64,000 nt of DNA from Candidatus Shapirobacteria bacterium (lineage in GTDB: Bacteria > Patescibacteriota > Microgenomatia > UBA12405): NCBI GenBank assembly GCA_028700625.1, contig JAQVSI010000002.1:3276-67275 (forward strand). Direction: 5' to 3'. How positions within the stretch are numbered: the first letter of the stretch is position 1; the number at the start of each line of letters is the position of its first letter. Below, piece by piece: positions 2,367 to 58,971 of the stretch. The translations under genes and the position numbers were made by a program. Below the pieces are notes generated by a model. It had not been told where the DNA came from and did not search any database. It was given only the letters and a program-made list of their open reading frames with translations.

Positions 2367-3728
2367 TTACTTTATTGGTCTTATTTTACAGGTATTTCCT
2401 AAATCTTCAACTAGATAACCCTTATTTTTGATAATTTTCCTCAACCTGTCAGACTCTGCCCAATTTTTAGTCTCTCTAGCTTTTTGCCTATCTTCAATTA
2501 ATTTAGCAATTTCATCTGAAATCTGAAAACTAACATCTGAGACCTCACTCAAGTTTAATCCTAAAACCTTATCAAAATCTAAAATAGTTGCCCATTTTTC
2601 TTCTGGATTTAAATCTGATTTAATCACCTTCCAAACTATCGCCATAGCCTCTGGCATTGCTAAATCATTAGAAATGGCCTCAACAAATTCATTTTTAAAA
2701 TCTAAATTCACTTGAGAAATTTGATCCGTTTTATAACTTCTTAATTTATTTAATGCTGTTTTAGCTGCTTTCAAAGACTCCAAAGAAAAAACTAAACCAT
2801 TTCTATAATGACTACTCAAAACCAAATATCTAAAAAATAAAGGATCATAACCCATCTCTTCAAGCTGTTGAATTGTATAAACATTTCCCAAAGATTTACT
2901 CATTTTTCCTTCTTTAAGGGTTAACCAAGCATTATGCACCCAAAATTTTGCCGTATTATGACCAAAAGCCCCAAAACCTTGAGCTATTTCATTAGAATGA
3001 TGAACCCCAATATGTTCAATTCCACCAGTATGAATATCAAAAGTTTCACCTAAATACTTTGTTGACATAGCAGTACATTCCAAATGCCAACCTGGAAAAC
3101 CTTCACCCCAAGGACTTTGCCATTTCATAATATGATTTGGTTGATTGGTGATCCAAAGCAAAAAATCCCATGGATTTTTTTTATCTTCATCAACTTCAAC
3201 TCGTGATCCAGATTCCAGCTCTTCCAATCTCAAATTAGCAAATTTATCATAATCAGAAAATTTTGAAGTATCAAAAACTAAACCAGTTTTAGTTTTATAA
3301 GTAAATCCCCTCTTTTCCAATTTTTTAGCCAAATTAATTTGCTCTTCAATATGCTCAGTTGCTTTTGGTAAAAAATTAGGAGTAATTATGTTTAATTTAT
3401 CTAGACTATCTATAAATTGTTCTTCATATTTCTTAGCAATTTCCCAAGATGTTAAACCTTCTCTTTTTGCCCCTTTTTCCATTTTATCTTCACCGCTATC
3501 AGCATCTGAAGTATTGTGTCCAACATCAGTTATATTCATCACCCAAGTAACATCATAATCTAAATACCTTAAAACTCTAACTAAAATATCCCAACTTAAA
3601 AAAGCATACATATTTCCAATATGCTGATTCCAATAAACTGTTGGTCCACATGAATAGATACCCACTTTATTTTCTTTTATTGGCTTAAACTCTTGTTTTT
3701 CTCTAACTAAAGTATTATAAAGTTTCAT
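2367..3728 (-). CDS. cysS: cysteine--tRNA ligase
   Basis: HIGN (HIGH) and KMSKS motifs, plus the Zn-binding Cys and His residues of class I CysRS. Confidence 0.9.
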
Positions 3729-3731
3729 CTT

Positions 3732-4214
3732 TTAATCTATTTTACCCTTAAACTCAGCTGTTTGCGACATTTGGCTTTGGTCTGGTTGTTGGGTTTTTCT
3801 TTTATTACCACCCTTATCTTTATGATGCTTATTAGAATTTCCCATCATTTCATCATAGTTAGCAATTTGTTCTTGTCTTTCCACCTCTCTTTGTTTCCTT
3901 AAATTTTCTAAAAAATTTCTTTCTTTTTCTTCCTCTTCTTGTTTCTTTTGATTGGATATTTGTTTAATTTCGCCTTCTATATTTCTTCCAGATATCCGAG
4001 ATCTGACATCTGATATCTCTTTTTGTTTCTTTCTTTCCTCTTCAGCTTTTTTTTGAGCCATTTCTTGTTCACTTAATGGCTTAATATCACCTAAAAGTTC
4101 CTGGGCTGTGATTACAGATTCGGCAATTTTTCCAGTTTCTTCAATCAACTTTTCCACTGTCTCCTGACCTAGTTGTTTCATCCCTTTCCCAAAATCTTTT
4201 ATTATCTGATTCAT
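3732..4214 (-). CDS. hypothetical Lys/Glu-rich coiled-coil protein
   Basis: Low-complexity charged ORF. It contains an ATCTGAN heptamer repeat segment at 3991-4019. Confidence 0.4.
   Translation of the reverse strand: MNQIIKDFGKGMKQLGQETVEKLIEETGKIAESVITAQELLGDIKPLSEQEMAQKKAEEERKKQKEISDVRSRISGRNIEGEIKQISNQKKQEEEEKERNFLENLRKQREVERQEQIANYDEMMGNSNKHHKDKGGNKRKTQQPDQSQMSQTAEFKGKID
3991..4019. repeat. ATCTGAN heptamer repeats
   Basis: GATATCCGAGATCTGACATCTGATATCTC. Confidence 0.5.
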
Positions 4215-4220
4215 AATTTA

Positions 4221-4844
4221 TTATATCTCCCTCCTTCCATCCATAGCTCGGCTCAAAGTTGCCTGATCAGCATACTCTAAATCTGCTCCCATCGGTAAAC
4301 CACTCCCAATTCTTGAAATTTTTAAATTTTTACCCTGTAAATTTTCTAATTTTTTCTTAATATACAAAGCAGTAGCTTCACCTTCCATAGTCGGATTTGT
4401 CGCCAGGATTACTTCTATTTGATCATTAGAAATTAGAAATTGATTATTTACTCTTTTAATCAATTCATCAATTTTCAAATCATCTGGTCCTATGTGTTCT
4501 AAAGGATTAACCACCCCACCTAAAACATGATAAACACCTTTAAACCCTCCAATATTTTCAATTGCCACCACATCAATTGCTCTTTCAACCACACAGATAA
4601 TTTTTTTATTTCTTTGTGAATCTTCACAAATTGAACAAATTTCTCCTTCACAAACCGAAAAACATTCTTTACAAATCTTTACTTCTTTTTTTATTGCCAA
4701 AAGAGATCTAGCAATTTCCGAAACATAAGACTCTGGGGTATTTATTAAATAAAAAACCAATCTGCTTGCACTCTTCGGTCCAATACCCGGCAATCTTTCA
4801 AAAGCCGAAATTAAATTATTGATACTTTTTGGTAATTCCGCCAT
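4221..4844 (-). CDS. recR: recombination protein RecR
   Basis: C4 zinc finger CKECFSVCEGEICSIC and a Toprim domain. The start was moved to an internal Met (MAELPKS) because the longer ORF overlaps ybaB. Confidence 0.85.
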   Translation of the reverse strand: MAELPKSINNLISAFERLPGIGPKSASRLVFYLINTPESYVSEIARSLLAIKKEVKICKECFSVCEGEICSICEDSQRNKKIICVVERAIDVVAIENIGGFKGVYHVLGGVVNPLEHIGPDDLKIDELIKRVNNQFLISNDQIEVILATNPTMEGEATALYIKKKLENLQGKNLKISRIGSGLPMGADLEYADQATLSRAMDGRREI

Positions 4845-4845
4845 T

Positions 4846-4868
4846 TTGGATATTAGAAATTGGAAATT
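4846..4868. repeat. TTGGAAA heptamer repeats at the ybaB-recR junction
   Basis: TTGGATATTAGAAATTGGAAATT. Confidence 0.4.
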
Positions 4869-5206: not shown

Positions 5207-6752
5207 CAAAGATTTCTTTCGCCACATCATAAATATCTCCACCACCAGATTCACTTTTATTTTCCACAAATTGATCGCTCACATTTTCCATTGGAGTATC
5301 ATTTTTAATGACTAAAGGTTCTTTTTTATTTTTTCCCAAGACACATTCAAAACACAAATCAACTCCAAAAACTTTTGTCATACAGTCTTCTACTATTTTT
5401 CTATTTTTTGCTTCTTCCAATCTGTCTTTATGAAAGGGATAAAAAACTTCTAAAAGTAAGATTTTTCCTTTAATTGAACGTGGTCTAGATGCTCTCAAAA
5501 ACGCTTCTACTGAATGATTATAAGGTTTAATTGTCGTCAATAAATTTCTCCATTTCTCCTTAACTTTTTCAACCTCAATCGAACAATTTTTCATTTGTAC
5601 GGGCGTATTACAATACGCCTCTTCAGCTAAAACCTTCACTTCTTCTGTCTTTTCATCTGAGATCTGAGATCTGAAATCTGAAATATCGGGTTTGATATCT
5701 GAGATCTGAGATCTTTTTTGTCCCACAAACTCAACAACTGCCAATTCTAATGGCAACTGATCTATTTCTACTTCTTTTTCTTGTTTAGATGCTTTAACTA
5801 ATAAGTTTATAAAAAATTCAGATTCACTCAAATTTAAACCATTCTGGTTTTCAGAACCCAAACCATAAAAAGATAAAATTTTCTTTTGAAAAAAATTCAT
5901 TAATTTTAATCTAAAACTAGAAAAATCAATTCCCTCTGTTGCCATCTTTTCTAATTTTTCCAAAATTAATTTAATTTCACCTTTATCCAAATCTTTATCG
6001 AAATCTTCTTCACTATAATTACCACTCTTATCCAAATAAAACTTAAAAACTTCCTCTGACTTTAATTTTTTTCCCAACTGCAAATATAATTCATTAAAAT
6101 TTCTCTGCAAATTTCTAAAACTACCATCACTCTTTTCTATAATAAAATCAACTGCCTCCTTAGCAATTTCAATTCCTTCTCCATCAATAATTTTTTTAAG
6201 TGAATTATTTAAAGCATCTTTTCCACCTTTTCTAAAGTCAACCCTTACTAACCTCGATAATACTGTTTCAGGGATTTTTTCGGCATCAGTAGTGCACAAA
6301 ACAAAAATTGTATGTTTAGGCGGTTCCTCAATTAACTTTAGAAGTGCATTAAAAGCATCTTTAGTTAACATATGAACTTCGTCAATAATAAAAACTTTTT
6401 TAGTTAACTTACTTGGTAATAAATAAGCTTTATCTTTTAAACTTCGAACATCTTCAATTCCTCGGTTTGATGCTCCATCCATTTCAATAACATCCATCGC
6501 TGAACCTTTTAATATTTCTTTACAATTATCACATTTTCCACAAGGCTCGCCATCTTTCAAATCATTACAATTAGTTGCTCTGGCCAAAATTCTGGCTGCT
6601 GATGTTTTTCCCGATCCCTTTGGTCCAGAAAATAAAAAAGATTGAGGTACATCTTTAGCTGATAAAAATTTCTTCAAACTAATTGCCACATCGGTCAAAT
6701 CCAAATCTGAAAACTTAATTGGTCTATATTTTAAGTGAAAAACTGACATCAA
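5202..6752 (-). CDS. dnaX: DNA polymerase III subunit tau/gamma
   Basis: Walker A GPKGSGKTS and the Zn module CGKCDNCKEI. It carries in-frame heptamer repeats at 5655-5714 and a degenerate palindromic element at 5597-5619. Confidence 0.85.
   Translation of the reverse strand: MMSVFHLKYRPIKFSDLDLTDVAISLKKFLSAKDVPQSFLFSGPKGSGKTSAARILARATNCNDLKDGEPCGKCDNCKEILKGSAMDVIEMDGASNRGIEDVRSLKDKAYLLPSKLTKKVFIIDEVHMLTKDAFNALLKLIEEPPKHTIFVLCTTDAEKIPETVLSRLVRVDFRKGGKDALNNSLKKIIDGEGIEIAKEAVDFIIEKSDGSFRNLQRNFNELYLQLGKKLKSEEVFKFYLDKSGNYSEEDFDKDLDKGEIKLILEKLEKMATEGIDFSSFRLKLMNFFQKKILSFYGLGSENQNGLNLSESEFFINLLVKASKQEKEVEIDQLPLELAVVEFVGQKRSQISDIKPDISDFRSQISDEKTEEVKVLAEEAYCNTPVQMKNCSIEVEKVKEKWRNLLTTIKPYNHSVEAFLRASRPRSIKGKILLLEVFYPFHKDRLEEAKNRKIVEDCMTKVFGVDLCFECVLGKNKKEPLVIKNDTPMENVSDQFVENKSESGGGDIYDVAKEIFG
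5597..5619. repeat. palindromic element P1, a degenerate copy inside dnaX
   Basis: GTACGGGCGTATTACAATACGCC. It encodes AYCNTPVQ in the dnaX reading frame. Confidence 0.5.
5655..5714. repeat. ATCTGAG heptamer tandem repeats, two blocks inside dnaX
   Basis: CATCTGAGATCTGAGATCTGAAATCTGAAAT ... ATATCTGAGATCTGAGATCT. Confidence 0.6.
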
Positions 6753-9876: not shown

Positions 9877-12015
9877 CTAATTAAGACTTTTTGCAGAAAA
9901 TTGTTTTTCTAAAGAATTCTTATAAATTTGTAAATCTAGTCCGTTAACATAACAATCTCCATTTAAGTCAGATTTCAAAACTCCATTAGTAGCAACTTCT
10001 TTATTCCATTCATTCTTCATTGCGGCAAAATCAAAACCATCTATAGAACCATTTCCATCAATGTCTCCATTCAAAATTGACCAATTATATAAAGTTAATG
10101 TTTTGTCAACCAAATCAGATACTTTTATTAAACTAGTATCCCCAGAAACAAATCCACCAGTTTGTTCATTACGACCATAAAGAGTTGTTAATAATTTAAG
10201 GTGGCTATCTTTAATATTGGTTACATATATATAAATTTTATCTGTTAATAAGTAAGTATTATCAAGTTCAAAATCTTTAATTTCATAAACTTGATAACCA
10301 TCATTGACTACTTTAACCGTTGAAAATTTATCATCAACTTTAGTTGCTATCATTTCCCTTGTAATCCCCGCATCTCCAGCCTTGGAAACGTTTACTTTTA
10401 ATTTCATTTGTTGATCTAAACACTTATCGTTAGCACCAGCAAAAACACCAAGCATTGAAACTTGCATTGTTAATTTTGGTGCAGTATAACCAGGATCACA
10501 ATCAACTGTTTCAGTCGCTGGATGAGTTACACCACCTGTACAAGTTCCAGTTTTAGTCCAAGTTTTAGTCTGTTTACCAGTACTAGGACAAGTTGTTGGA
10601 GATAAAGCTGAAGTCCAATTAGCTGTAGTACAAGCAATATCACATCCAGTAACGGCACCACAAAGAGCTTCACTGGAGAAAGTGGTAGTTCCATTGGCTG
10701 CGGTTGAACTTGCACTGTTTTTAGTACATACCCAATTTCCAGTTGAAGTATTACAAGAACCTTTTGTAAAGATAGTATAAGTTGTTTGATTACATCCAGT
10801 GTAATCTTCACATTTTTCTTTATCAGAAAAAGTGGTACTTCCATTAGGCGCTGTTGTACTTGTACTACTAGTACATGAATATTTACCTGTCGAAGTATTA
10901 CAAGAACCTTTTGTGTATATGGTATAAGTTGGAATTGAATTTGGTACACAACAACGATAAGTTGTATCTGTTGGTTTACTCATACATAAACCTTTTTCAA
11001 TTTTTCCAGTTCCCCCATTACAAGAACCACCAACAGTTGATGTTTCCCAAACTTTACATACGCCATCTTTATCAGTACATGGTTTATCTAAAACTGTTGC
11101 CGGAGCACAACATTTAACATCACTACCACTACTCATACAATAATTAGTTAAATAAGTTTTACCATTAGTACAAGCAGTAGTTGTTTTTTGACAAACACCA
11201 CCCGCGTTTACACATTTAGAATCTTGAACAATCACAGTACTGCCACTAGCTACACAAGCACCATTAGAACAAGTTTTCCCGGATGCATAACAAGCTTCTT
11301 TAGAATGCCATCCAAAATTAGTTCCACCCGTAGAGATATTAGGATAGCTACCACATACATATAAAACTGTTTTTGATTGACTAGTAGTATTACCACACTT
11401 AACATCACCACTATTACCAACAACACTCACTGTTTCAGAATCAGCAGCGCAAGTTGAAGGAGTTGAAGTTGAATTTGAATTTGAAGAAGTTGAGGTTGAG
11501 CAAACACCATTCAATAGAAGATTGTCGCAAGTACATTTATAATCCAAAAAAAGAGGATTATTGTCTTTTTTTAGCTTACAACTATAGCCGACATCGCAAC
11601 CAACATTTTTATAACCATTACAATTTGAATCCGAAGAAACACATTGATTTCCAATACAATTACCAGAAGCACACATCTTATCCATAATACAAAGAGCTTT
11701 TATTGTTCTTGGTGTACCAACAAACTCAGGAAAATCTGAATAAGGAACATTCTTCCAGTCACTTTCAGAATACTCACCAGACTTAATTAGGTCATCCCTA
11801 CCAAGACTTGAGAATGTTACTGTTGAATTAGGAACACCCAAAAGTGGAAATGCTTTACTCCTATTTTCTTGACTCTTTTTAACCAAATTAGTGGTTAAGG
11901 GCAAAGCTACTGCTAAAACCAACATAACAACCATAACTACAATTTGGGAAATACCTTTTTGTTTGTTCATTTTATATAAAAATCTTATAGAAAAGTAAAA
12001 CACTTTTGAAAACAA
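9877..12015 (-). CDS. large Cys-rich repeat surface protein with a C-terminal dockerin
   Basis: 712 aa with a signal/TM start and tandem ~45-aa repeats (YTI[YF]TKGSCNTSTG...). The C-terminus has two DxDxNGxIDxxD and DLNGDCYVNGLD calcium-loop repeats. Confidence 0.5.
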   Translation of the reverse strand: MFSKVFYFSIRFLYKMNKQKGISQIVVMVVMLVLAVALPLTTNLVKKSQENRSKAFPLLGVPNSTVTFSSLGRDDLIKSGEYSESDWKNVPYSDFPEFVGTPRTIKALCIMDKMCASGNCIGNQCVSSDSNCNGYKNVGCDVGYSCKLKKDNNPLFLDYKCTCDNLLLNGVCSTSTSSNSNSTSTPSTCAADSETVSVVGNSGDVKCGNTTSQSKTVLYVCGSYPNISTGGTNFGWHSKEACYASGKTCSNGACVASGSTVIVQDSKCVNAGGVCQKTTTACTNGKTYLTNYCMSSGSDVKCCAPATVLDKPCTDKDGVCKVWETSTVGGSCNGGTGKIEKGLCMSKPTDTTYRCCVPNSIPTYTIYTKGSCNTSTGKYSCTSSTSTTAPNGSTTFSDKEKCEDYTGCNQTTYTIFTKGSCNTSTGNWVCTKNSASSTAANGTTTFSSEALCGAVTGCDIACTTANWTSALSPTTCPSTGKQTKTWTKTGTCTGGVTHPATETVDCDPGYTAPKLTMQVSMLGVFAGANDKCLDQQMKLKVNVSKAGDAGITREMIATKVDDKFSTVKVVNDGYQVYEIKDFELDNTYLLTDKIYIYVTNIKDSHLKLLTTLYGRNEQTGGFVSGDTSLIKVSDLVDKTLTLYNWSILNGDIDGNGSIDGFDFAAMKNEWNKEVATNGVLKSDLNGDCYVNGLDLQIYKNSLEKQFSAKSLN

Positions 12016-24132: not shown

Positions 24133-26136
24133 ATGAAGTCTTTTATTAAGTCTGTTCGTTTTCTGTTTTTGACCCTCTTTTTTGTCACTCCTTTAATTTT
24201 TACCCAGTCCAATTCCGAGCTTTTCGAATTACCAAAAATGTATTTTGTATATCTTTTAACCATTTTAATAACTACTTTTCATCTAGTTAATGTCTTTAAA
24301 AAACAAGCTCCTCTATTTAAAAAAACTTTTCTAGACATCCCTTTGCTTTTATTTCTAATTTCTCAAATAATTTCCACTATTTATTCAATCGATCCTCATA
24401 CTTCCTTTTTTGGTTATTACTCCAGACTTAATGGCGGTCTTTTATCGTTAATCTGTTATGCCCTTTTGTACTGGATTCTTTCGATTTACATCAATTCTAA
24501 TTTCAAAAAACAAATCATTAATTTTTCATTACTTTCCGGTTTTTTAATTTCTATTTATGCTATTGCCCAGCATTTTGGTATCGATAAAAATTTATGGGTT
24601 CAAGACGTTCAATCTCGAGTTTTTTCCACCCTCGGCCAACCAAATTGGCTCGCCGCCTATCTTTGTATCCTACTTCCATTTTCTATTTACAAATTTTTTC
24701 AATCAATCAATACGTACGGGCGTATTGCCATACGCCCCTATCTTTATTTATTTTTAACATTAATTTTTTATATTTCTATTCTTTTCACCAAATCCAAATC
24801 TGGTATCATTGCCTGCCTCATTTCCCTTTTTGTATACTTCACCTTCTCTTTCTTAAAAAACAAAAATTCTCGAAAATTGTTAATTCTTAATTATTCATTA
24901 TTAATTATTCTTTCGCTTTTAATCGCTAATCCAATCAAAGATCAACTTTTCCCTCCTAAATTGGAAATTGGAAATTCGACATTAGAAATTAATAACAAAT
25001 TAAACATTACCCCCTCAGGTGATATCCGAAAAATTGTTTGGACTGGCGCCGTTGATCTTTGGAAAAAATTTCCTATTTTTGGCACTGGTGTTGAAACTTT
25101 TGCGTATTCCTATTATTGGACTCGTCCTGTTAAACATAATTTAACCTCTGAATGGGATTTTCTCTACAACAAAGCCCATAACGAATATATTAATTATCTA
25201 GCCACCACCGGTGCCATCGGTCTAATCACTTATTCAATTTTAATATTTACTTTTCTTTTTTCTTTAATCAAAAATTTAATTAGAAATTGGAAATTAGAAA
25301 TTGAAAATTTATCTCTAGTTATTTTAACTTCATATATTTCTATTCTCATTACCAATGCCGCCGGCTTCTCTGTAGTTTCCACTTCACTTTTCTTCTTCCT
25401 CCTCCCCGCTCTTTTAATTCCCGATCAAAATACTAAAGTAGAGACGTTGCATGCAACGTCTCTACACAAATTCTTAATTATTCCTCTAATTTTAATTAGT
25501 TTTATCTTCACTAAAAGAATAATCTTCTTTTATCTAGCCGACATTGCCTACAGCCAAGCCGAAACTTATGATTCTAGAAATAATTATAAAACTGCTCTTT
25601 CTTATCTTCAAATAAGTCATCAGTTCAACCCCAAAGAACCCTTATATACTGACAAACTAGCTACTATTTACTCAAAAATTGCTTTAAATAGTGAAAAACA
25701 AGAAGATATCGACAAATCTATAAATTATTCTAATCTAACTATTAAAATTTCTCCTAGTAATATTAATTTTTGGAAAGAACGAGCTCAAGTTTATCTTTAT
25801 CTTTCAGGAGTTGATTCAAAATATTTTTCCGAAGCCATTATTTCTCTCGATAAAGCTAGTCTTTTAGCCCCAACCGACGCCAAAATTTATTATTCAATTG
25901 GTCAATTCCTAGAAACTGCCAGTCTTCAAAAAGAAGCTATTCCTTATTATCAAAAAGCCATTGAATTAAAACCAAATTACGATTATGCCTATTTTGCTCT
26001 GGGCAAAATTTATTTATCTCAAAAAGAAAATATATTAGCTAAAAAAAATCTACAAAAAGCCGTTGATTATTCTTATCCCACCAACTCCGAAGCCGAAAGA
26101 CTACTTAAAACCATTTTCCCTGCCACCTCTTTATAA
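24133..26136 (+). CDS. O-antigen ligase / Wzy-like polytopic membrane protein with C-terminal TPR repeats
   Basis: About 12 TM helices followed by TPR repeats (AYFALGKIYL). It contains the palindromic element at 24714-24741 and heptamer repeats at 24958-24990 and 25279-25310. Confidence 0.5.
   Translation: MKSFIKSVRFLFLTLFFVTPLIFTQSNSELFELPKMYFVYLLTILITTFHLVNVFKKQAPLFKKTFLDIPLLLFLISQIISTIYSIDPHTSFFGYYSRLNGGLLSLICYALLYWILSIYINSNFKKQIINFSLLSGFLISIYAIAQHFGIDKNLWVQDVQSRVFSTLGQPNWLAAYLCILLPFSIYKFFQSINTYGRIAIRPYLYLFLTLIFYISILFTKSKSGIIACLISLFVYFTFSFLKNKNSRKLLILNYSLLIILSLLIANPIKDQLFPPKLEIGNSTLEINNKLNITPSGDIRKIVWTGAVDLWKKFPIFGTGVETFAYSYYWTRPVKHNLTSEWDFLYNKAHNEYINYLATTGAIGLITYSILIFTFLFSLIKNLIRNWKLEIENLSLVILTSYISILITNAAGFSVVSTSLFFFLLPALLIPDQNTKVETLHATSLHKFLIIPLILISFIFTKRIIFFYLADIAYSQAETYDSRNNYKTALSYLQISHQFNPKEPLYTDKLATIYSKIALNSEKQEDIDKSINYSNLTIKISPSNINFWKERAQVYLYLSGVDSKYFSEAIISLDKASLLAPTDAKIYYSIGQFLETASLQKEAIPYYQKAIELKPNYDYAYFALGKIYLSQKENILAKKNLQKAVDYSYPTNSEAERLLKTIFPATSL
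24714..24741. repeat. palindromic element P4, inside the O-antigen-ligase-like gene
   Basis: GTACGGGCGTATTGCCATACGCCCCTAT. It encodes TYGRIAIRPY in frame. Confidence 0.6.
24958..24990. repeat. TTGGAAA heptamer repeats
   Basis: AAATTGGAAATTGGAAATTCGACATTAGAAATT. Confidence 0.45.
25279..25310. repeat. TTGGAAA / TTAGAAA heptamer repeats
   Basis: TTAGAAATTGGAAATTAGAAATTGAAAATTT. Confidence 0.45.
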
Positions 26137-26660: not shown

Positions 26661-27515
26661 TTGATAAACTATCTCATGACTAACATTATTTTCTTTGGTT
26701 CATCCGAACATTCTGTCATCATTCTTAAAAAACTTCTTGAAATTAAAGATTTTAATGTTTTGGCCGTTTTTACTAAACCAGACAAAGCCACTGGTCGCGC
26801 TCAAGAAATCACTAAAAATCCAGTTTCCTCTTTCGCCAACCAAAACAACCTCAAACTTATCCAAATTGAAGAATTTACTCAAGAAGTCAAATCTGAGATC
26901 CGAGATCTTAAATCTGATATCGCTTTATGTGTCGCTTTCGGTCCTCCTTATTTTGATCAAGAAATGATTGCTATTCCCAAATTTAAAATCGTTAACATCC
27001 ATCCATCACCATTACCAAAATATCGCGGTGCCACCCCCGGCCCTTGGCAAATAATCAATGGCGAAACTAAAAGCGCTGTCACTTTCTTCCAAATCGATGC
27101 TCTGCCCGACCACGGCCCCATTATTGCCCAAATTCCATTTGAAATTAGTTCACAAGAAACCGCCACCAGTTTTTATCAAAAAGCTTTTAATATTGCTTCT
27201 GATAATTTAGAAAATGTTTTAAAGTCTTATATTTCCAACCCAACCAATTTAACCACTCAAAATGATACTCAAAAAACCTATTTTCCAAAATTCAACAAAG
27301 ACAATGCCAAAATTGACTGGAACTGGGACGAAATCAAAATCAATCGCTTTATTCACGCTTTAAACCCTTGGCCAATTGCTTGGACTTTTGTTAACAATCA
27401 ACAAGGTCAAAAATTAAAAATGAAGATGTTTTCCAGAACCTTAGTCCAAATCGAAGGCAAGAAAATCACTCCTTGGTCAGAAATTTCAAAATATTATACT
27501 ATAAATAAATCCTAA
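26661..27515 (+). CDS. fmt: methionyl-tRNA formyltransferase
   Basis: Formyltransferase N-domain with IVNIHPSPLPKYRGATP. It is divergent from def and carries an in-frame heptamer repeat at 26891-26924. Confidence 0.8.
   Translation: MINYLMTNIIFFGSSEHSVIILKKLLEIKDFNVLAVFTKPDKATGRAQEITKNPVSSFANQNNLKLIQIEEFTQEVKSEIRDLKSDIALCVAFGPPYFDQEMIAIPKFKIVNIHPSPLPKYRGATPGPWQIINGETKSAVTFFQIDALPDHGPIIAQIPFEISSQETATSFYQKAFNIASDNLENVLKSYISNPTNLTTQNDTQKTYFPKFNKDNAKIDWNWDEIKINRFIHALNPWPIAWTFVNNQQGQKLKMKMFSRTLVQIEGKKITPWSEISKYYTINKS
26891..26924. repeat. ATCTGAN heptamer repeats inside fmt
   Basis: ATCTGAGATCCGAGATCTTAAATCTGATATCGCT. Confidence 0.5.
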
Positions 27516-27810
27516 CATTAGGCCAAATTTAAATTCAATTTTTAAATTTATTGGAAAATTTCACCATTAATGAATTGTCTTTTTTCTGCAAACTTCCGCC
27601 TTTTTGTAATTTATTTTTAATTATTAATTCTTAATTATTAATTTTTTAAAAATAAAATTTAACCATATAATAGGAATTATTTTCAAAAATTTGACAAAAA
27701 TTATTTCAAATTTAGTTTACAAAAAATTAAATTTTGCCGATAAATAGGATTTTATTTTTTTGACATTTTTTTTAAATCCTTTTTAATTAATTAAAGGAGG
27801 AAAACAAAAT

Positions 27811-27924
27811 ATGGCAGTCAAAAAAAAGAAAGCAGCTAAAAAAGTTGCAAAGAAAAAAGTTGTCAAAAAAGTAGCCAAGAAAAAAGCTACTAAAAAAGTC
27901 GCCAAAAAAGCTAAAAGAAAATAA
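27811..27924 (+). CDS. small Lys/Ala-rich basic protein (37 aa), histone H1-like or HU-like in composition
   Basis: Strong SD AAAGGAGG 8 nt upstream. The sequence is MAVKKKKAAKKVAKKK..., and a terminator follows 24 nt downstream. The ORF is below the track's length cutoff. Confidence 0.4.
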   Translation: MAVKKKKAAKKVAKKKVVKKVAKKKATKKVAKKAKRK

Positions 27925-30387: not shown

Positions 30388-30463
30388 GCCTGAGTAGCTC
30401 AGTTGGTTAGAGCACCAGTTTTGTAAACTGGTTGTCGTGAGTTCAAATCCCACCTCAGGCTCA
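30388..30463 (+). tRNA. tRNA-Thr (anticodon UGU)
   Basis: A cloverleaf can be drawn by hand: acceptor GCCTGAG/CTCAGGC, anticodon loop TTTGTAA, T-loop GTTCAAATC. Confidence 0.8.
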
Positions 30464-30486
30464 TTTTTTGATAAAATACCAAACGT

Positions 30487-30559
30487 GCCCAGATAGCTCA
30501 GTTGGTAGAGCATCCCCTTGGTAAGGGGAAGGTCTTGGATTCGAGTTCCAATCTGGGCT
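30487..30559 (+). tRNA. tRNA-Thr (anticodon GGU)
   Basis: Acceptor GCCCAGA/TCTGGGC and anticodon loop TTGGTAA. Confidence 0.8.
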
Positions 30560-30593
30560 CAAAGGAGGGCATGCCCTCCGAAGCTTTAGCGAA

Positions 30594-30679
30594 GGAGGGG
30601 TGCTCCGAATGGTAAGGAACTTGTTTTGAAAACAAGCGTCAGCAATGACATGCAGGTTCAACTCCTGTCCCCTCCGCCA
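30594..30679 (+). tRNA. tRNA-Ser (anticodon UGA), type II with a long variable arm
   Basis: Acceptor GGAGGGG/CCCCTCC, anticodon loop TTTGAAA, variable arm GTCAGCAATGACATG, and an encoded CCA. Confidence 0.75.
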
Positions 30680-33242: not shown

Positions 33243-33314
33243 CAGGCCCATGAGGATTCGAACCTCAAATGGAGATTTTGGAGATCCCAGTGATAACCAT
33301 TTCACTATGGGCCT
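33243..33314 (-). tRNA. tRNA-Trp (anticodon CCA)
   Basis: Minus-strand cloverleaf: acceptor AGGCCCA/TGGGCCT, D-stem GTGA/TCAC, anticodon loop CTCCAAA, T-arm TGAGG-TTCGAAT-CCTCA. Confidence 0.7.
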
Positions 33315-33756: not shown

Positions 33757-33829
33757 TGGACCCAAGGGGACTCGAACCCCTGACCTTCCCCATGCCATGG
33801 GGACGCGCTACCAACGACGCTATGGGCCC
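33757..33829 (-). tRNA. tRNA-Ala (anticodon GGC)
   Basis: Acceptor GGGCCCA/TGGGTCC with the G3:U70 Ala identity pair, and anticodon loop ATGGCAT. Confidence 0.7.
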
Positions 33830-38294: not shown

Positions 38295-40928
38295 ATGGCT
38301 TTAATAGATAAATTAAAAGCACACTTCGACAAAATAATTTTAGCTTTAGTTCTATTAGTCTTAATTTGTCAAAATTTTACTCCTCATACTTGGCTTATTG
38401 GTTGGGACAACCTTCTTCCCGAACTAAATATCTGGTTAAATTTAAAAAGATCATTTCTGGCGGTCTGGCAGGAATATCAAGGCCTTGGTTTGGTTGGTGG
38501 CATGGGTCATGCTACTGAATTAATCAGACAACTAATAATTCTTCCCTTTACTTTAGTACTTCCTCACAATTTAATCCGCTATTTTTGGCAATTCTTAATG
38601 TTAATTTTAGGCACTTTTAGTCTCAATATTGGTCTAAAAAAAATATTCCACTTGTCAAAAACAACCAGTCTTTTAACTTCCCTTTTTTATCTATTAAATT
38701 TTGGCACTGTTCAATATTTTTGGGTTCCTTTTGAACCATTTTCTACATTTTGGGGATTTTTTCCAGCTCTTTTTTTTCTTCTTTGGAACTACTTAAAAAA
38801 TCCCAATCGTAAAAATCTAATTTACCTTATTTTAATTAACTTTCTCGCCATTCCTAGTTTTTATGTCCAAACTATTTTTATAGTTTATTTAATTTGTCTT
38901 TTTATAATTCTTTTCTCTCATTTAATTTTCAATCTTAAAAAAATTCCAGTAAAACTCTATTCTTCTCTCCTCTTAATTGTCTTTCTTTTAAATTCTTTTT
39001 GGCTTCTCCCATTTTCCTATTATTTAAAAAATGATCTAAACAACACCACTCAAGCCTATGGTAATTTAATGGCCACTCAAGAAACTTTTGATCGTAATCA
39101 AAATAGAGGAACCATCTCTGATTTTTTACTTCTCCGTAACTACTATTTTGATTTTCCAAAAGACAAAAGCACTCTTATGGCTCCTTGGACATCTTTTTTT
39201 TACAACCAATACAATCTAATTTGTGGTTATATTGTTTCCCTGTTTGTCATTATCGGTCTAATCTTTCTTATTTCAAGAATTAAACAAAAATCACCAATTA
39301 AATTATCTATTTTATTAATCTTTCTATTATCTTCGATTGCCTTACTTTCAGACACTCCTATTTTTTCTCAAATAAACTATTTAATTCACCAGATTCCTAT
39401 TATTAACCAAGTTTTTAGATCTCCATGGACAAAATTCTTAGTTCCTACTGCTTTTACTTTCTCTGTTCTTTTAGCTTTTGGACTTGAATTTATCTTCAGG
39501 CTTCTTAAAAAAATCAAATATAATCCAATTTTTTCCAAATCTCTAGTTAGTCTTATTTTTATTTTTGCCCTTTTAAAATTTAGTTTTCCTGTTTTTAAAG
39601 GTCAATTTTTCTCTCCTCAAATAAAACAAAACATTCCACAAGAATATTTTGAACTTTTCACTTTTTTCAACAAAATCTCCCCCACTGCTAGGATTATGAA
39701 TTTACCTCAAGGATCTTTTTGGGGTTGGACCAATTACCGCTGGAATGTCAATGGCTCCGGTTTTATTTGGTATGGTTTAAAACAACCAATCCTCGACCGA
39801 TCTTTTGATGTTTGGAACCTTAAAAATGAAAATTATTATTGGGAATTAACTTCTGCCCTCCAACAAAAAAATCCACAAGCTCTAAATAATATTATTGATA
39901 AATATTCGGTTGAATATATTATTTTTGATAAAAATATTTATTATCCAGATGAAAAGATTTTTGGAAAGCTAGCAACTTCAGGAACAGATATTTTAAATCA
40001 AATTAAAAATTTAAAATTAATTAAAAACATTGGTTCTATATCTATTTACCAAAATCAAAACCCAACTAAAATTTATACTACTAATAATCTCAACAGTAGT
40101 CTTCCAATTGCTCATTTTGATCCTAATTTTAAACCTCAATTTTTACCTTCTTCCGATTCTATTATCTACCCTTTCGATCATAGTATTTTAAAAGAATCTC
40201 AAAATGCAAAAACCAGCACAAATAACGAAATTTATTTTCATCTCCAAAATAAAAATTCTCATAATCTCTTAGCTTTTAATTTTTCTAATCTAAAATTTGA
40301 TCAAGATTATCTTCTTAAAATAGAAACCAAAAATACCAACGGTCAAAGTCCAATTATTTCTGTTTTTGATAATAACAATCATTATTATTTTTTCAAAAAT
40401 CAACTTAAAAAATCAAAAGAATGGCAAATTACCTGGCTTTTAATTCCTAAAATGGAAAATTTTTCTTTTGACACTGGACTAACAGTTTTATTTGACAACC
40501 CAAGTTTTAATAAAACTGATTCTATAAATGAAGTTAAAAATCCTGAAATTTATCCATATCAAAACAATATTCCTCTTATAGACAACTATCAAGCACCTAC
40601 TAACAATTATTTAGATTCAAAATCAAGCATATTTTTTTACAAAACCAAATTAAACCAGAGCAATAATCAGTATTTAGTCTTACCTCAATCATTTCATAAA
40701 GGTTGGAGTGCTTTTTATCTCGATGGTTTAAAACCAGTTTTTCTAAAAGATCATGTTCTCTATAACAATTGGGCCAACGCCTGGCAAATTCCCTCAGATC
40801 TGACATCTGATAGTCTGAAATCTGAGATCTATATTGCTTTCTGGCCTCAAATCTTCGAGTTTTTCGGTTTCGCCCTTCTAATTTCTACCTTCATTTTGAT
40901 ATTTAAAAACAAAAAAGAAATCAAATAA
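38295..40928 (+). CDS. large polytopic membrane protein (YfhO or GT-C-like), likely glycan-related
   Basis: 877 aa with more than 12 N-terminal TM helices, directly downstream of the GT2 gene. It carries a heptamer repeat at 40797-40830. Confidence 0.45.
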   Translation: MALIDKLKAHFDKIILALVLLVLICQNFTPHTWLIGWDNLLPELNIWLNLKRSFLAVWQEYQGLGLVGGMGHATELIRQLIILPFTLVLPHNLIRYFWQFLMLILGTFSLNIGLKKIFHLSKTTSLLTSLFYLLNFGTVQYFWVPFEPFSTFWGFFPALFFLLWNYLKNPNRKNLIYLILINFLAIPSFYVQTIFIVYLICLFIILFSHLIFNLKKIPVKLYSSLLLIVFLLNSFWLLPFSYYLKNDLNNTTQAYGNLMATQETFDRNQNRGTISDFLLLRNYYFDFPKDKSTLMAPWTSFFYNQYNLICGYIVSLFVIIGLIFLISRIKQKSPIKLSILLIFLLSSIALLSDTPIFSQINYLIHQIPIINQVFRSPWTKFLVPTAFTFSVLLAFGLEFIFRLLKKIKYNPIFSKSLVSLIFIFALLKFSFPVFKGQFFSPQIKQNIPQEYFELFTFFNKISPTARIMNLPQGSFWGWTNYRWNVNGSGFIWYGLKQPILDRSFDVWNLKNENYYWELTSALQQKNPQALNNIIDKYSVEYIIFDKNIYYPDEKIFGKLATSGTDILNQIKNLKLIKNIGSISIYQNQNPTKIYTTNNLNSSLPIAHFDPNFKPQFLPSSDSIIYPFDHSILKESQNAKTSTNNEIYFHLQNKNSHNLLAFNFSNLKFDQDYLLKIETKNTNGQSPIISVFDNNNHYYFFKNQLKKSKEWQITWLLIPKMENFSFDTGLTVLFDNPSFNKTDSINEVKNPEIYPYQNNIPLIDNYQAPTNNYLDSKSSIFFYKTKLNQSNNQYLVLPQSFHKGWSAFYLDGLKPVFLKDHVLYNNWANAWQIPSDLTSDSLKSEIYIAFWPQIFEFFGFALLISTFILIFKNKKEIK
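40797..40830. repeat. ATCTGAN heptamer repeats inside the large membrane protein gene
   Basis: AGATCTGACATCTGATAGTCTGAAATCTGAGATCT. Confidence 0.5.
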
Positions 40929-44712: not shown

Positions 44713-45642
44713 TTAACAAAAAGGACATTTTTCTCCAGAATACCAACAACCACATTTTTTACACTCCATAAATCCTTCTGGAATTTTCCCATGTTTTACT
44801 TCACCGTTAGATAAAATATAATAACCAATCTTTTCTCCAAAATTTCCCACTGTTGTTGTCACTGAACAACCAAAACTTTGTTCTGTTTTAGCTCCAGTCA
44901 TTGCTCCATACATAAAATCTTCCAATTTATTTCGACTAATTACAATTTCTTTTTCATCTTTTCTATTTCTTAAAGCATTAAAACAAGCCGAATATAATCT
45001 AAAAATTACATCACTATCTTCCGTTAAATTATTTCCAAAATTATTTTTAAATTCTTTTAAATATTTACCAACCACTTTTTCAATGTAATCAAATTCAAGC
45101 GAATTTTTTGATTCACACAAATCAAATAAACTAAAGATTTCAGCCAATTTTAAATTGACTCCCGTTGGGGATTTTAAGATTTCTTTTTCATCTTTAATTT
45201 CTTCTTGACCACCCAAAACACTTCTCATTTTCTTCATATCTCCAAAATCATTTTTCACTACAATTCTATTCCAAACTATTTTTTCATCCACTTTTCTCCA
45301 AAAATCAACAGAATTAGTTAAATAACCAAATTCTTCATTTTTAGGACTAAAATAAACCCAGGTTTTTTTAGGATCTTGACTCAACCCGCTCTCTATTTTT
45401 TTAATTGCCTGATTTTCTTCATCATTTCCCAATTCCGAAACCAAATCACCTGAAAACAAATCAACAATTCTTCCATTTTCTATCACAAAATTTTTAGAAA
45501 ATTTTACTATACCAAAATCCTCAGCTAATTGAGTTGTTAACTCTAATTTCAAATTTAAATCTCTTTTTTCTAAATCTACTCTCCCTAAAAAAACAACTTC
45601 TTTTTCTGCTGAATAACCATTTCGTTCTATTTTTTCTTTCAT
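44713..45642 (-). CDS. hypothetical protein with a C-terminal zinc ribbon
   Basis: CKKCGCW...CPFC at the C-terminus. Confidence 0.35.
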   Translation of the reverse strand: MKEKIERNGYSAEKEVVFLGRVDLEKRDLNLKLELTTQLAEDFGIVKFSKNFVIENGRIVDLFSGDLVSELGNDEENQAIKKIESGLSQDPKKTWVYFSPKNEEFGYLTNSVDFWRKVDEKIVWNRIVVKNDFGDMKKMRSVLGGQEEIKDEKEILKSPTGVNLKLAEIFSLFDLCESKNSLEFDYIEKVVGKYLKEFKNNFGNNLTEDSDVIFRLYSACFNALRNRKDEKEIVISRNKLEDFMYGAMTGAKTEQSFGCSVTTTVGNFGEKIGYYILSNGEVKHGKIPEGFMECKKCGCWYSGEKCPFC

Positions 45643-45723
45643 ATTACTCTTGCTCGAAAGTTTTAGAGATCCGACTTTACGGTTGCGGCACAGTCTAGGA
45701 ATTACACCTAGTTCCCTATTAAA

Positions 45724-46176
45724 TTATTTTTTAATTTGTTCGACTGATTTTATAAATAAATAATCTGAAAGTCTATTGAAATATTTTAGTATATCTTTAT
45801 TAATTTTTTGCTGTTTATTCAAAGTAACAATCCTTCTTTCTGCTCTTCTGCAAACAGTCCTTGCCCAATTTAATTCTAAAGATTCTTTTTCTTTAAATTT
45901 TACAAACTTAGTTAATTTATAATCTTTGGAACTTATTTCTTTCTCCATTTTTTCGATTGGAAATTGGAAATTGGAAGTTGGAAATTTAATTCCACACCCC
46001 AATTCTCCCATTATTCTCCCCAAATCATCAATAATTTTTTTATTAACTTTAATTAACTCTAAAACCGCTTGTAATTCATCAATGGTTCCAACAGCCTCAA
46101 GTAATGGATTGTCTTTATCCACTATTTTTCCTAAAAAATAACTTTTACCTTCATCACCTTTTTTTGTTGTTATCAT
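45724..46176 (-). CDS. PduO-type ATP:cob(I)alamin adenosyltransferase
   Basis: TKKGDEGKS...EAVGTIDELQ. Adjacent to the B12-dependent RNR, and carries an in-frame heptamer repeat at 45956-45987. Confidence 0.55.
   Translation of the reverse strand: MITTKKGDEGKSYFLGKIVDKDNPLLEAVGTIDELQAVLELIKVNKKIIDDLGRIMGELGCGIKFPTSNFQFPIEKMEKEISSKDYKLTKFVKFKEKESLELNWARTVCRRAERRIVTLNKQQKINKDILKYFNRLSDYLFIKSVEQIKK
45956..45987. repeat. TTGGAAA heptamer repeats inside the PduO-like gene
   Basis: ATTGGAAATTGGAAATTGGAAGTTGGAAATTT. Confidence 0.5.
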
Positions 46177-57798: not shown

Positions 57799-58026
57799 GT
57801 TTTGTGTTTACCCGCCCGAGGCGTTTTTGAACTCATGTTCAACAACATCACCTCGGGCCTTTTAATAACTAATCTATTTACAAAGCAAAATCTAATTGAT
57901 ACAATAAACCCAATCTAACCGAAGACAGTAGGCATTCAAATAAGTCCCACCGAGGTCAAAACAATTTATTTGTCTTGATTAATACCCTCGCTTCTTCGGC
58001 GAGGTTTTTTTATTTATTAAACCAAT
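57799..58026 (+). promoter_or_regulatory. rplJ (L10) leader with attenuator-like hairpin
   Basis: CCTCGCTTCTTCGGCGAGG plus a T7 run at 57986-58011, preceded by an alternative pairing GCCCGAGG...CCTCGGGC. Confidence 0.4.
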
Positions 58027-58578: not shown

Positions 58579-58971
58579 ATGGAATTATCCGCAAAATTGC
58601 AAAAAATATTAGATTCTATCTCTGAGCTTTCAGTTGTAGAATTATCAGAACTCGTTAAAGGTATCGAAGAAAAATTCGATGTTAAAGCTGTTGCCGTGTC
58701 ACCTGCTGCCGCTGCACCTACTGCTGGCGCTGGCGCTGCACCTGCACCTGCTGAAGAAAAATCTGAATTTGATGTTATCATCACTTCTGCTGGCGCAAAT
58801 AAAATTGCTGTCATCAAAGCTGTCCGAGAATTTAAACCAGAACTTGGTCTTAAAGAAGCCAAAGATATGGTTGATGCCTGTCCAGCTGATTTAGGTACTA
58901 TGAAAAAAGAAGCTGCTAATGATGCTAAAGCAAAATTAGAAGCCGCTGGAGCACAAGTTGAATTAAAATAA
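58579..58971 (+). CDS. rplL: 50S ribosomal protein L7/L12
   Basis: Ala/Pro-rich hinge and a C-terminal domain ending [12 protein letters not shown]. Confidence 0.9.

Follow-up and report, generated by a model that had tools for sequence, protein, structure and literature searches.

In-frame heptanucleotide repeat arrays in dnaX, fmt and other housekeeping genes of a Candidatus Shapirobacteria genome

Tandem repeats with a unit of seven nucleotides (nt) form a known class in prokaryotes. According to the account that PMC4679880 gives of the survey of Mrazek, Guo & Shah (2007), heptanucleotide repeats are the most abundant class of long simple-sequence repeats (SSRs) in most genomes, and polymerase slippage was proposed as a possible cause (PMC4679880). 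That survey reportedly found units with a length multiple of three to be the likeliest in coding regions (Mrazek et al., 2007), and PMC4692102 also covers heptanucleotide long SSRs in prokaryotes. Here, we analyzed such arrays in a stretch of 64,000 nt (31% G+C), hereafter the window, from a metagenome-assembled genome of Candidatus Shapirobacteria, a member of the candidate phyla radiation (CPR), in which heptamers of the ATCTGAR family lie within dnaX, fmt and other genes. All counts for the genome refer to these 64 kb.

Tandem heptamers known as short tandemly repeated repetitive sequences (STRRs) were reportedly described in cyanobacteria by Mazel and colleagues in 1990. The TAACTGA repeats reported by MacGregor (2015) are found in Beggiatoaceae, Cyanobacteria and Bacteroidetes; their forward strand has stops in all frames, their reverse strand occurs inside open reading frames (ORFs), and a post-transcriptional regulator has been proposed for them (PMC4679880). 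In Borg elements, tandem repeats create intrinsically disordered regions (PMC9879509), and the papers on these Borg repeats were the only ones turned up by our literature search for heptamer repeats in CPR bacteria. The dnaX gene is itself known for recoding into tau and gamma products, by a -1 frameshift at A_AAA_AAG in E. coli and by transcriptional slippage in Thermus (PMC5009743).

Blocks of the ATCTGAR family occurred at five loci of the window, in dnaX, fmt, cysS and the genes of a 160-aa protein and an 877-aa membrane protein (Table 1). A 13-mer allowing up to two mismatches had 19 matches in the window, against 1.38 in dinucleotide shuffles, and the five four-unit blocks (at most 6 mismatches in 28 positions) compare with 0.015 expected from 200 codon-preserving shuffles. 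With Tandem Repeats Finder (TRF), period 7 was the top period of the window, accounting for 12 of the 29 rows with at least three copies, whereas 40 codon shuffles gave a mean of 2.7 and a maximum of 6 such period-7 arrays. The same period ranked first in six loci of related Shapirobacteria, as it did in 80 metagenome loci with dnaX homologs, mostly from distant relatives; the relatives found in this DnaX metagenome scan, at most 55% identical among the matches listed, were used only as background for the TRF periods. The feature is thus real and statistically solid. The same units recur at unlinked places within the 64 kb, five loci for ATCTGAR and five for a second family, AAATTRG, and they are not mainly intergenic: all five ATCTGAR blocks and four of the five AAATTRG blocks lie inside ORFs. 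Their hosts dnaX, fmt, cysS and recR are housekeeping genes rather than surface, restriction-modification or dispensable genes. An Rfam search returned no family matching the arrays. The arrays are real, dispersed and of two or more unit families; they are a habit of the lineage across its genome and not a peculiarity of dnaX. This last point and the concerted evolution at the DNA level described below were missed by the original prediction, made from the sequence of the window. The blocks that it listed besides dnaX (3991-4019, 26891-26924 and 40797-40830) were all found as described; the cysS block at 2514-2547 was absent from its list.

The main array lies in dnaX, the gene of a tau-type subunit of DNA polymerase III whose product has its best match, at 100% identity, in a protein of a Candidatus Shapirobacteria metagenome-assembled genome. 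Positions 5654-5714 read C ATCTGAG ATCTGAG ATCTGAA ATCTGAA AT, then ATCGGGTTTG, then AT ATCTGAG ATCTGAG ATCT, in agreement with the repeat sequence first proposed. TRF described the array with a period of 7, 8.6 copies, 75% matches and a score of 64, and its three degenerate central units keep the 7-nt phase common to all units. The coding strand is AGATCTC AGATCTC AGATATC AAACCCG ATATTTC AGATTTC AGATCTC AGATCTC AGAT, so that dnaX, on the minus strand, reads AGATNTC (equally CTCAGAT) units that give the peptide RSQISDIKPDISDFRSQISD. The translation around the array is ...GQKRSQISDIKPDISDFRSQISDEK..., and the leading ISDF of the peptide initially given was an error. In the DnaX protein, Pfam matches cover residues 24-175 (DNA_pol3_delta2) and 394-478 (DnaX_C), and the array encodes residues 347-366, between the last helix of domain III and DnaX_C. 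An AlphaFold2 model based on a 59-sequence alignment (its numbering starts at ORF residue 2) places a helix at 332-348, then a segment without secondary structure at 349-389 whose predicted local distance difference test (pLDDT) is below 50, followed by a well-modelled C-terminal domain. Because the helix ends at 348 and the low-confidence, unstructured segment follows, the array is predicted to encode the first part of a flexible linker. Among 120 aligned dnaX orthologs, the segment past the conserved ...QLPLELAVVEF helix was hypervariable in both sequence and length.

The copy number of the dnaX array varied among relatives, from 8.6 units in the window to 4.4 in L201 (81% identity), 3.9 in L200 (88% protein identity) or none, L202 (79% identity) keeping only a degenerate remnant. 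The array was absent from the dnaX of L257 (90% protein and 88% DNA identity), whose linker has exactly the length of the window's (53 residues, from VEF to CSI) with 22 unrelated codons. L193, a distant homolog with 28% identity, carries AGATCAG arrays in the linker of its dnaX. The same linker is taken up by further recurrent motifs of low complexity in other lineages (orthologs P0017, P0023, P0028, P0029, P0031 and P0039; P0106; P0043), namely SKPTQPSLEKGGQ, KITNYELQITNE and KCQVTN...SCKVSNVKPQ; judged from the peptides alone, some of them look like translations of other heptamer arrays.

How such arrays can be translated at all follows from their arithmetic. Three heptamers make 21 nt, i.e., seven codons, so that each frame of a perfect array yields one and the same repeat of seven residues; for AGATNTC this repeat is RSQ(I/M)SD(L/V/I/F) in each frame of one strand. 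CTCAGAT x3 encodes LRSQISD without a stop, whereas ATCTGAG x3 puts an in-frame TGA in every frame, which is why the copies in sense orientation (fmt and the 877-aa protein) are degenerate; in fmt, a CGA codon stands where a perfect unit would have the in-frame TGA. The variable N of AGATNTC is the last base of an Ile/Met codon and the first base of a Leu/Val/Ile/Phe codon, which keeps heptad positions a and d hydrophobic. This pattern may be the reason why the arrays are tolerated in helices and linkers.

The fmt array falls in a conserved helix of Formyl_trans_N, and in the comparison of the window Fmt with E. coli Fmt (1FMT) the tract aligned without a gap on the window side (evkseirdlksdialcvafg). 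Correlated variants, KSEIRDLKSDIA, KLEIRNLKLDIG, KLKIKNLKLDLG and LRSTIYDLKPDL, were found at this site among 120 fmt orthologs. We compared the window at the DNA level with four orthologs (L255, L206, L207 and L256). All four hold an array that matches the window's in register and length, but in three the units differ (Table 1). Position 5 of the successive units is CCCCC in the window and L255, TTTTT in L206, TTTTC in L207 and CCCC- in L256; the window and L206 show five parallel C/T differences, three of them synonymous (ATC/ATT twice and CTT/TTG). Identity to the window dropped to 0.57-0.63 in the block versus 0.76-0.79 over the whole gene, and was 0.94 in the block of L255, which has the same unit family. 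The perfect CGATCTA x3 of L256 encodes DLRSTIYDL, a peptide without amino-acid periodicity. Since position 5 changes in all units together, synonymous sites included, the fmt site shows concerted evolution of a DNA repeat under constraint on length and helix character.

Length and frame of the arrays are fixed where the protein is constrained (the fmt helix and the 160-aa protein) and drift where it is not (the dnaX linker and loops of cysS and def). The 160-aa protein, which had no Pfam match, has its block at an identical position and with an identical length in L200, L201 and L202, and in L202 the 7-nt periodicity has decayed with the peptide retained. Relatives carry NKEIEEEKIPEE at the position of the cysS block, where the window peptide is one codon longer. 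The def gene of L207 has an array of its own, GGATCTC AGATCTC AAATTTC AGATTTC, in a variable loop; relatives thus carry arrays elsewhere. These comparisons speak against the tracts being insertions in general, which the original prediction had expected orthologs to confirm: fmt is gap-free relative to E. coli Fmt, the tract of the 160-aa protein keeps its length in all relatives, cysS differs by a single codon, and the dnaX linker is equally long (53 aa) in L257, which has no repeat. A length shared with relatives, which the prediction itself had counted as evidence against its view, was observed for fmt and the 160-aa protein.

Two other features were observed around fmt. A small lysine-rich ORF (MAVKKKKAAKKVAKKKVVKKVAKKKATKKVAKKAKRK) at 27810-27923 (+) follows a GGAGG motif and consists of 27-nt tandem repeats (TRF score 99); it is kept downstream of fmt in relatives (L206, 6308-6418; L207, about 11160-11240). 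In the Shapirobacteria relative L255, an ORF with a Pfam mTERF match (859-1782) stands directly upstream of fmt; the mTERF domain is mainly eukaryotic and organellar.

The AAATTRG arrays of the window (Table 1), of which the one at 24958..24990 was also found in L206, share a further property with the ATCTGAR arrays: the strong arrays, five per family, all have the same + strand orientation regardless of the strand of the host gene. The GC skew is strongly negative (-0.15 to -0.42) over the whole window, and since this holds also where the genes are on the + strand, the skew follows the chromosome strand and not the coding strand. In the five scorable arrays of the window (5/5), the strand of the array that contains G is the G-poor one. 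A general rule that arrays oppose the local GC skew was discarded, as the 80 dnaX-homolog metagenome loci gave 20 concordant and 18 discordant cases and other phyla 33 and 28, respectively (among the matches listed).

Altogether, the tracts are probably heptanucleotide SSRs of the known prokaryotic class that lie in frame in essential genes of a CPR bacterium and have been filtered by protein constraint. Replication slippage or mispairing between 7-nt units would lead to the gain and loss of units, repeated loss and gain would homogenize the array, and recombination between arrays might contribute. Selection would then retain the variants that keep the frame, avoid stops and encode an acceptable peptide, and an AGATNTC peptide, being hydrophobic at heptad positions a and d, would fit a surface helix or a flexible linker. 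The tracts are most likely near-neutral passengers that provide sequence for linkers or helices, and not regulated switches; nothing in the analysis pointed to phase variation, to programmed frameshifting or to selection on GATC.

Several points weigh against an origin by slippage. Slippage itself is an inferred mechanism, and with perfect runs of at most 2.9 units it may at present be slow. The length-preserving swap for unrelated sequence between the dnaX linkers of the window and L257 is not readily accounted for by simple slippage, and neither is the cysS replacement with its difference of one codon. It leaves the single chromosome-strand orientation of the strong arrays unaccounted for, and the sharing of AGATCTG and AAATCTG by unlinked genes of one genome, with other units in the fmt of other genomes, also counts against it.

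A rival reading is an active, sequence-specific homogenization, in which a templated process such as gene conversion between dispersed arrays overwrites coding DNA with the current heptamer of the genome while keeping its length. The same-length replacement in the dnaX linker, the replacement one codon longer in cysS, the fixed length of fmt arrays with lineage-specific units, and the unit types and strand orientation shared by the fmt and dnaX arrays of the window, in spite of the opposite strands of these genes, would all fit such a process. However, no donor-recipient tract was seen beyond the array itself, no candidate enzyme was identified, the DNA-level comparison includes only four orthologs, and turnover of units within arrays combined with selection on length explains most observations. 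We thus regard homogenization of this kind as unlikely. We are equally doubtful of a broader version, in which an active, strand-specific process of Shapirobacteria spreads and homogenizes a genome-specific heptamer (AGATCTG/AAATCTG here; AAATTRG, AAATTAA and CGATCTA in relatives) whose copies would perhaps also serve as cis-elements. If true, a templated conversion or a replication-linked mechanism would overwrite coding DNA in place with its length unchanged, and DNA-repeat dynamics, rather than point mutation, would write parts of essential proteins.

Another reading takes the arrays as functional cis-elements set within coding sequence, either polar motifs of the chromosome or sites where a protein specific to the lineage binds DNA or mRNA, kept uniform by selection for binding. 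The presence of the same unit at several unlinked loci, the co-variation of units within an array and the common orientation of the five strong arrays of each family would be expected of such elements, for which the post-transcriptional regulator proposed for the similar TAACTGA arrays offers a precedent (PMC4679880). When 185,579 species genomes were scanned for (ATCTGAR)x3, at least 119 loci came up, in Acidobacteriota, Planctomycetota, Bacteroidota, Verrucomicrobiota, Cyanobacteria and others, with no CPR genome among the matches listed. Among these same matches, forward arrays were followed within 45 nt by an ORF that starts with ATG and has 100 codons or more in 29 of 107 cases, versus 5 of 107 for the reverse-strand control; several contigs often came from one genome, and the ATCTGAR arrays often adjoined other heptamer arrays. 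Perfect (ATCTGAR)n also reached up to 13 units among the matches listed, some as inverted pairs. In the window, by contrast, the five ATCTGAR blocks are all intragenic and none precedes a start codon. In addition, the unit sequence varies between close relatives at a single site, the dnaX array is missing from the 90%-identical ortholog, two unrelated families stand side by side, and no Rfam family matched. In a control with viral contigs, ATCTGAR x3 occurred in 20 stretches versus 15, 6 and 6 for three composition-matched heptamers; since these are about as common, the unit is not special, and the idea of ATCTGAR as a special widespread element was dropped after these counts. A cis-element function therefore appears decidedly improbable.

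Another possibility is that dnaX is a contingency locus or yields a gamma-type product, a truncated gamma-like DnaX arising from slippage of units or from a frameshift at an A-run followed by a hairpin. The 7-nt unit is not a multiple of three, a slip of one unit in either direction would end DnaX at 368-369 aa, just past domain III, CAAAAAAG precedes the tract, and the two half-arrays fold into a hairpin of -21.7 kcal/mol. A slippery site should read X_XXY_YYZ in the zero frame, or be an A/T run of at least nine (PMC5009743); the zero frame here is A_AAA_AGA (CAA AAA AGA) instead of A_AAA_AAG, its A-run is no longer than A6, and L200 reads CAG AAG AGA at this position, so that CAAAAAAG was rejected as a slippery site, being in the wrong frame and not conserved. 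The hairpin was not significant (z = -1.7; 10 of 200 shuffles fold equally well), and its second arm is missing in relatives. Close relatives lack the array or have it in degenerate form, the longest perfect runs, 20 and 18 nt or no more than 2.9 units, do not make a long slippage-prone tract, and the repeat also occurs in fmt, cysS and other genes where a short isoform is not expected. Switching thus seems very improbable, as the original prediction had already judged in favor of constrained in-frame tracts, and the orthologs from clean assemblies were all in frame.

The only truncated ortholog, P0117 (376 aa, ending in the linker), was rejected as evidence of switching because it is an artefact of an error-ridden assembly in which most genes are split. 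On its contig, L205 (ENA ERZ25039527), RRF, recR, cysS, SSB and many other genes are fragmented, as expected from uncorrected indel errors of long reads; L256 comes from the same assembly. Proteins from ERZ25039527 such as P0117 should not be taken as natural truncations.

Convergence at the protein level, with selection for an amphipathic heptad peptide rich in S, D, E, R, I and L creating the similarity of the DNA, is extremely improbable. It would be consistent with the similar peptides that the near-palindromic unit gives on both strands (RSQISDL and RSEI-DL, where the dash is a stop) and with the hydrophobic positions of the fmt helix retained across orthologs, but it is largely refuted by the concerted changes at synonymous sites (ATC/ATT, CTT/TTG); CGATCTA x3 moreover encodes DLRSTIYDL without periodicity, and codon-preserving shuffles yield about 0 such blocks. 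Finally, clusters of GATC (Dam-type) methylation sites, or of AGATCT sites related to restriction-modification, have a negligible probability. The four GATC/AGATCT sites in the 60 nt of the dnaX tract would fit them, but only units ending in G carry GATC (not every unit, as had been proposed), ATCTGAA, which makes up most units among the genome matches listed, has none, nor do the AAATTRG family and the orthologous fmt arrays of AAATTRG/AAATTAA units, GATC is neither avoided nor enriched in the window (166 versus about 174 expected), and AGATCT (24 versus 16.2, standard deviation 4.1, with 8 of the 24 inside arrays) is not significantly enriched.

Table 1. Heptamer arrays of the window, some of their host genes, and the units of the fmt array in related genomes.
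Feature	Position	Strand	Description
Main heptamer array (in dnaX)	5655..5714	+ (ATCTGAR)	8.6 units, one phase; perfect sub-blocks 5655-5682 and 5697-5714
dnaX, DNA polymerase III tau-type subunit, 516 aa	5202..6752	-	ORF, Pfam
ATCTGAR-family block in cysS (minus strand)	2514..2547	+	3/28 mismatches
ATCTGAR-family block in 160-aa protein	3994..4021	+	encodes EISDVRSRIS
160-aa Lys/Glu-rich conserved protein	3732-4214	-	ORF
fmt five-unit array	26889..26923	+ (fmt plus strand)	AAATCTG AGATCCG AGATCTT AAATCTG ATATCGC, encodes KSEIRDLKSDIA
fmt units, L255			as window, AAATCTG/AGATCYG type; two bases different
fmt units, L206			AAATTGG AAATTAG AAATTTG AAATTAG ACATTGG (AAATTRG)
fmt units, L207			AAATTAA AAATTAA AAATTTA AAATTAG ... 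(AAATTAA)
fmt units, L256			CGATCTA CGATCTA CGATCTA ... (perfect x3)
Weaker ATCTGAR-family block, one indel	40797..40833	+	near C-terminus of 877-aa membrane protein, encodes SDLTSDSLKSEI
877-aa membrane protein	38295-40928	+	ORF
Second-family array (ATTAGAA, 2.4 perfect units)	4425..4441	+	inside recR, encodes NQFLISN
Second-family array (TTGGAAA, 3.3 units)	4846..4868	+	between ybaB stop and probable recR start (MAELPKS...)
Second-family array (AAATTGG, 4.7 units)	24958..24990	+	Wzy_C/TPR membrane protein, encodes KLEIGNSTLEI
Second-family array (AATTAGA/AAATTGG, 4.3 units)	25278..25306	+	same Wzy_C gene, encodes IRNWKLEIENL
Second-family array (ATTGGAA, 4.4 units, 91% matches)	45956..45986	+	cobalamin adenosyltransferase gene (minus), encodes PTSNFQFPIE

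Elsewhere in the window, an AdoCbl-II (cobalamin) riboswitch match at 45656-45731 (-) scored 44.6 bits, above the gathering score of 36.5; it overlaps the cobalamin adenosyltransferase gene (45724-46176) at its 3' end and lies just upstream of the next minus-strand ORF (44713-45642). A ribosomal protein L10 leader (52 bits) was found at 57901-58019 (+), upstream of a probable rplJ-rplL pair whose second ORF contains short GC-rich repeats of 6 and 15 nt (58688-58751). The window also has five tRNA genes, three of them clustered at 30388-30676 (+) and the others at 33243-33314 (-) and 33757-33829 (-).

Heptanucleotide SSRs filtered by protein constraint would mean that DNA-repeat dynamics act inside essential genes of a reduced CPR genome and not just between genes, with an outcome that includes the sequence of the DnaX linker and even conserved residues of the Fmt helix. 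Such segments evolve in concert, so that their sites are not independent, which calls for caution in alignment, phylogeny and selection tests. The fmt site, with the same length and register but different units among orthologs, offers a compact natural system for two old questions: the dominance of 7 nt among prokaryotic SSRs and the occurrence of one heptamer at many loci. The more exciting reading, that of phase-variable essential genes and Dam clusters, has been removed as unsupported.

Among the known systems, the heptanucleotide long SSRs of prokaryotes have in common with our arrays that period-7 arrays are dominant, dispersed, lineage-specific and above chance; the difference is that those described here lie in frame in essential genes of a CPR bacterium, including the conserved helix of an enzyme. 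The cyanobacterial STRRs are reportedly similar in being genome-specific families of tandem heptamers at many loci, but are said to be mostly intergenic and of higher copy numbers. Contingency loci, e.g., the SSRs of Haemophilus influenzae (PMC2651432), likewise have a non-triplet SSR in an ORF, where a change in units shifts the frame; here, however, the tracts are short, imperfect and in housekeeping genes, their length is conserved across orthologs, and the orthologs from clean assemblies show no out-of-frame alleles. As in the recoded dnaX genes (PMC5009743), the dnaX tract lies two-thirds along the gene, at the end of domain III, with off-frame stops close by, but it has no canonical slippery site in the zero frame and no conserved stimulator, and it is not conserved in relatives.

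The Borg repeats (PMC9879509) are also fast-evolving tandem DNA repeats within ORFs that supply linker or disordered segments, comparable to the dnaX linker; our arrays have a 7-nt unit, are short (at most 8.6 units) and are present in the structured helix of fmt as well. With the TAACTGA repeats, our arrays share 7-nt units with CTGA, a forward strand with TGA in every frame and an open reverse strand found within ORFs, and the ATCTGAR arrays of other phyla, among the matches listed, show a like tendency to lie shortly before a start codon. Unlike the TAACTGA repeats, the ATCTGAR copies of the window are all intragenic, inside the protein rather than only at its periphery, and some run in the sense direction, where mutation has removed the stop.

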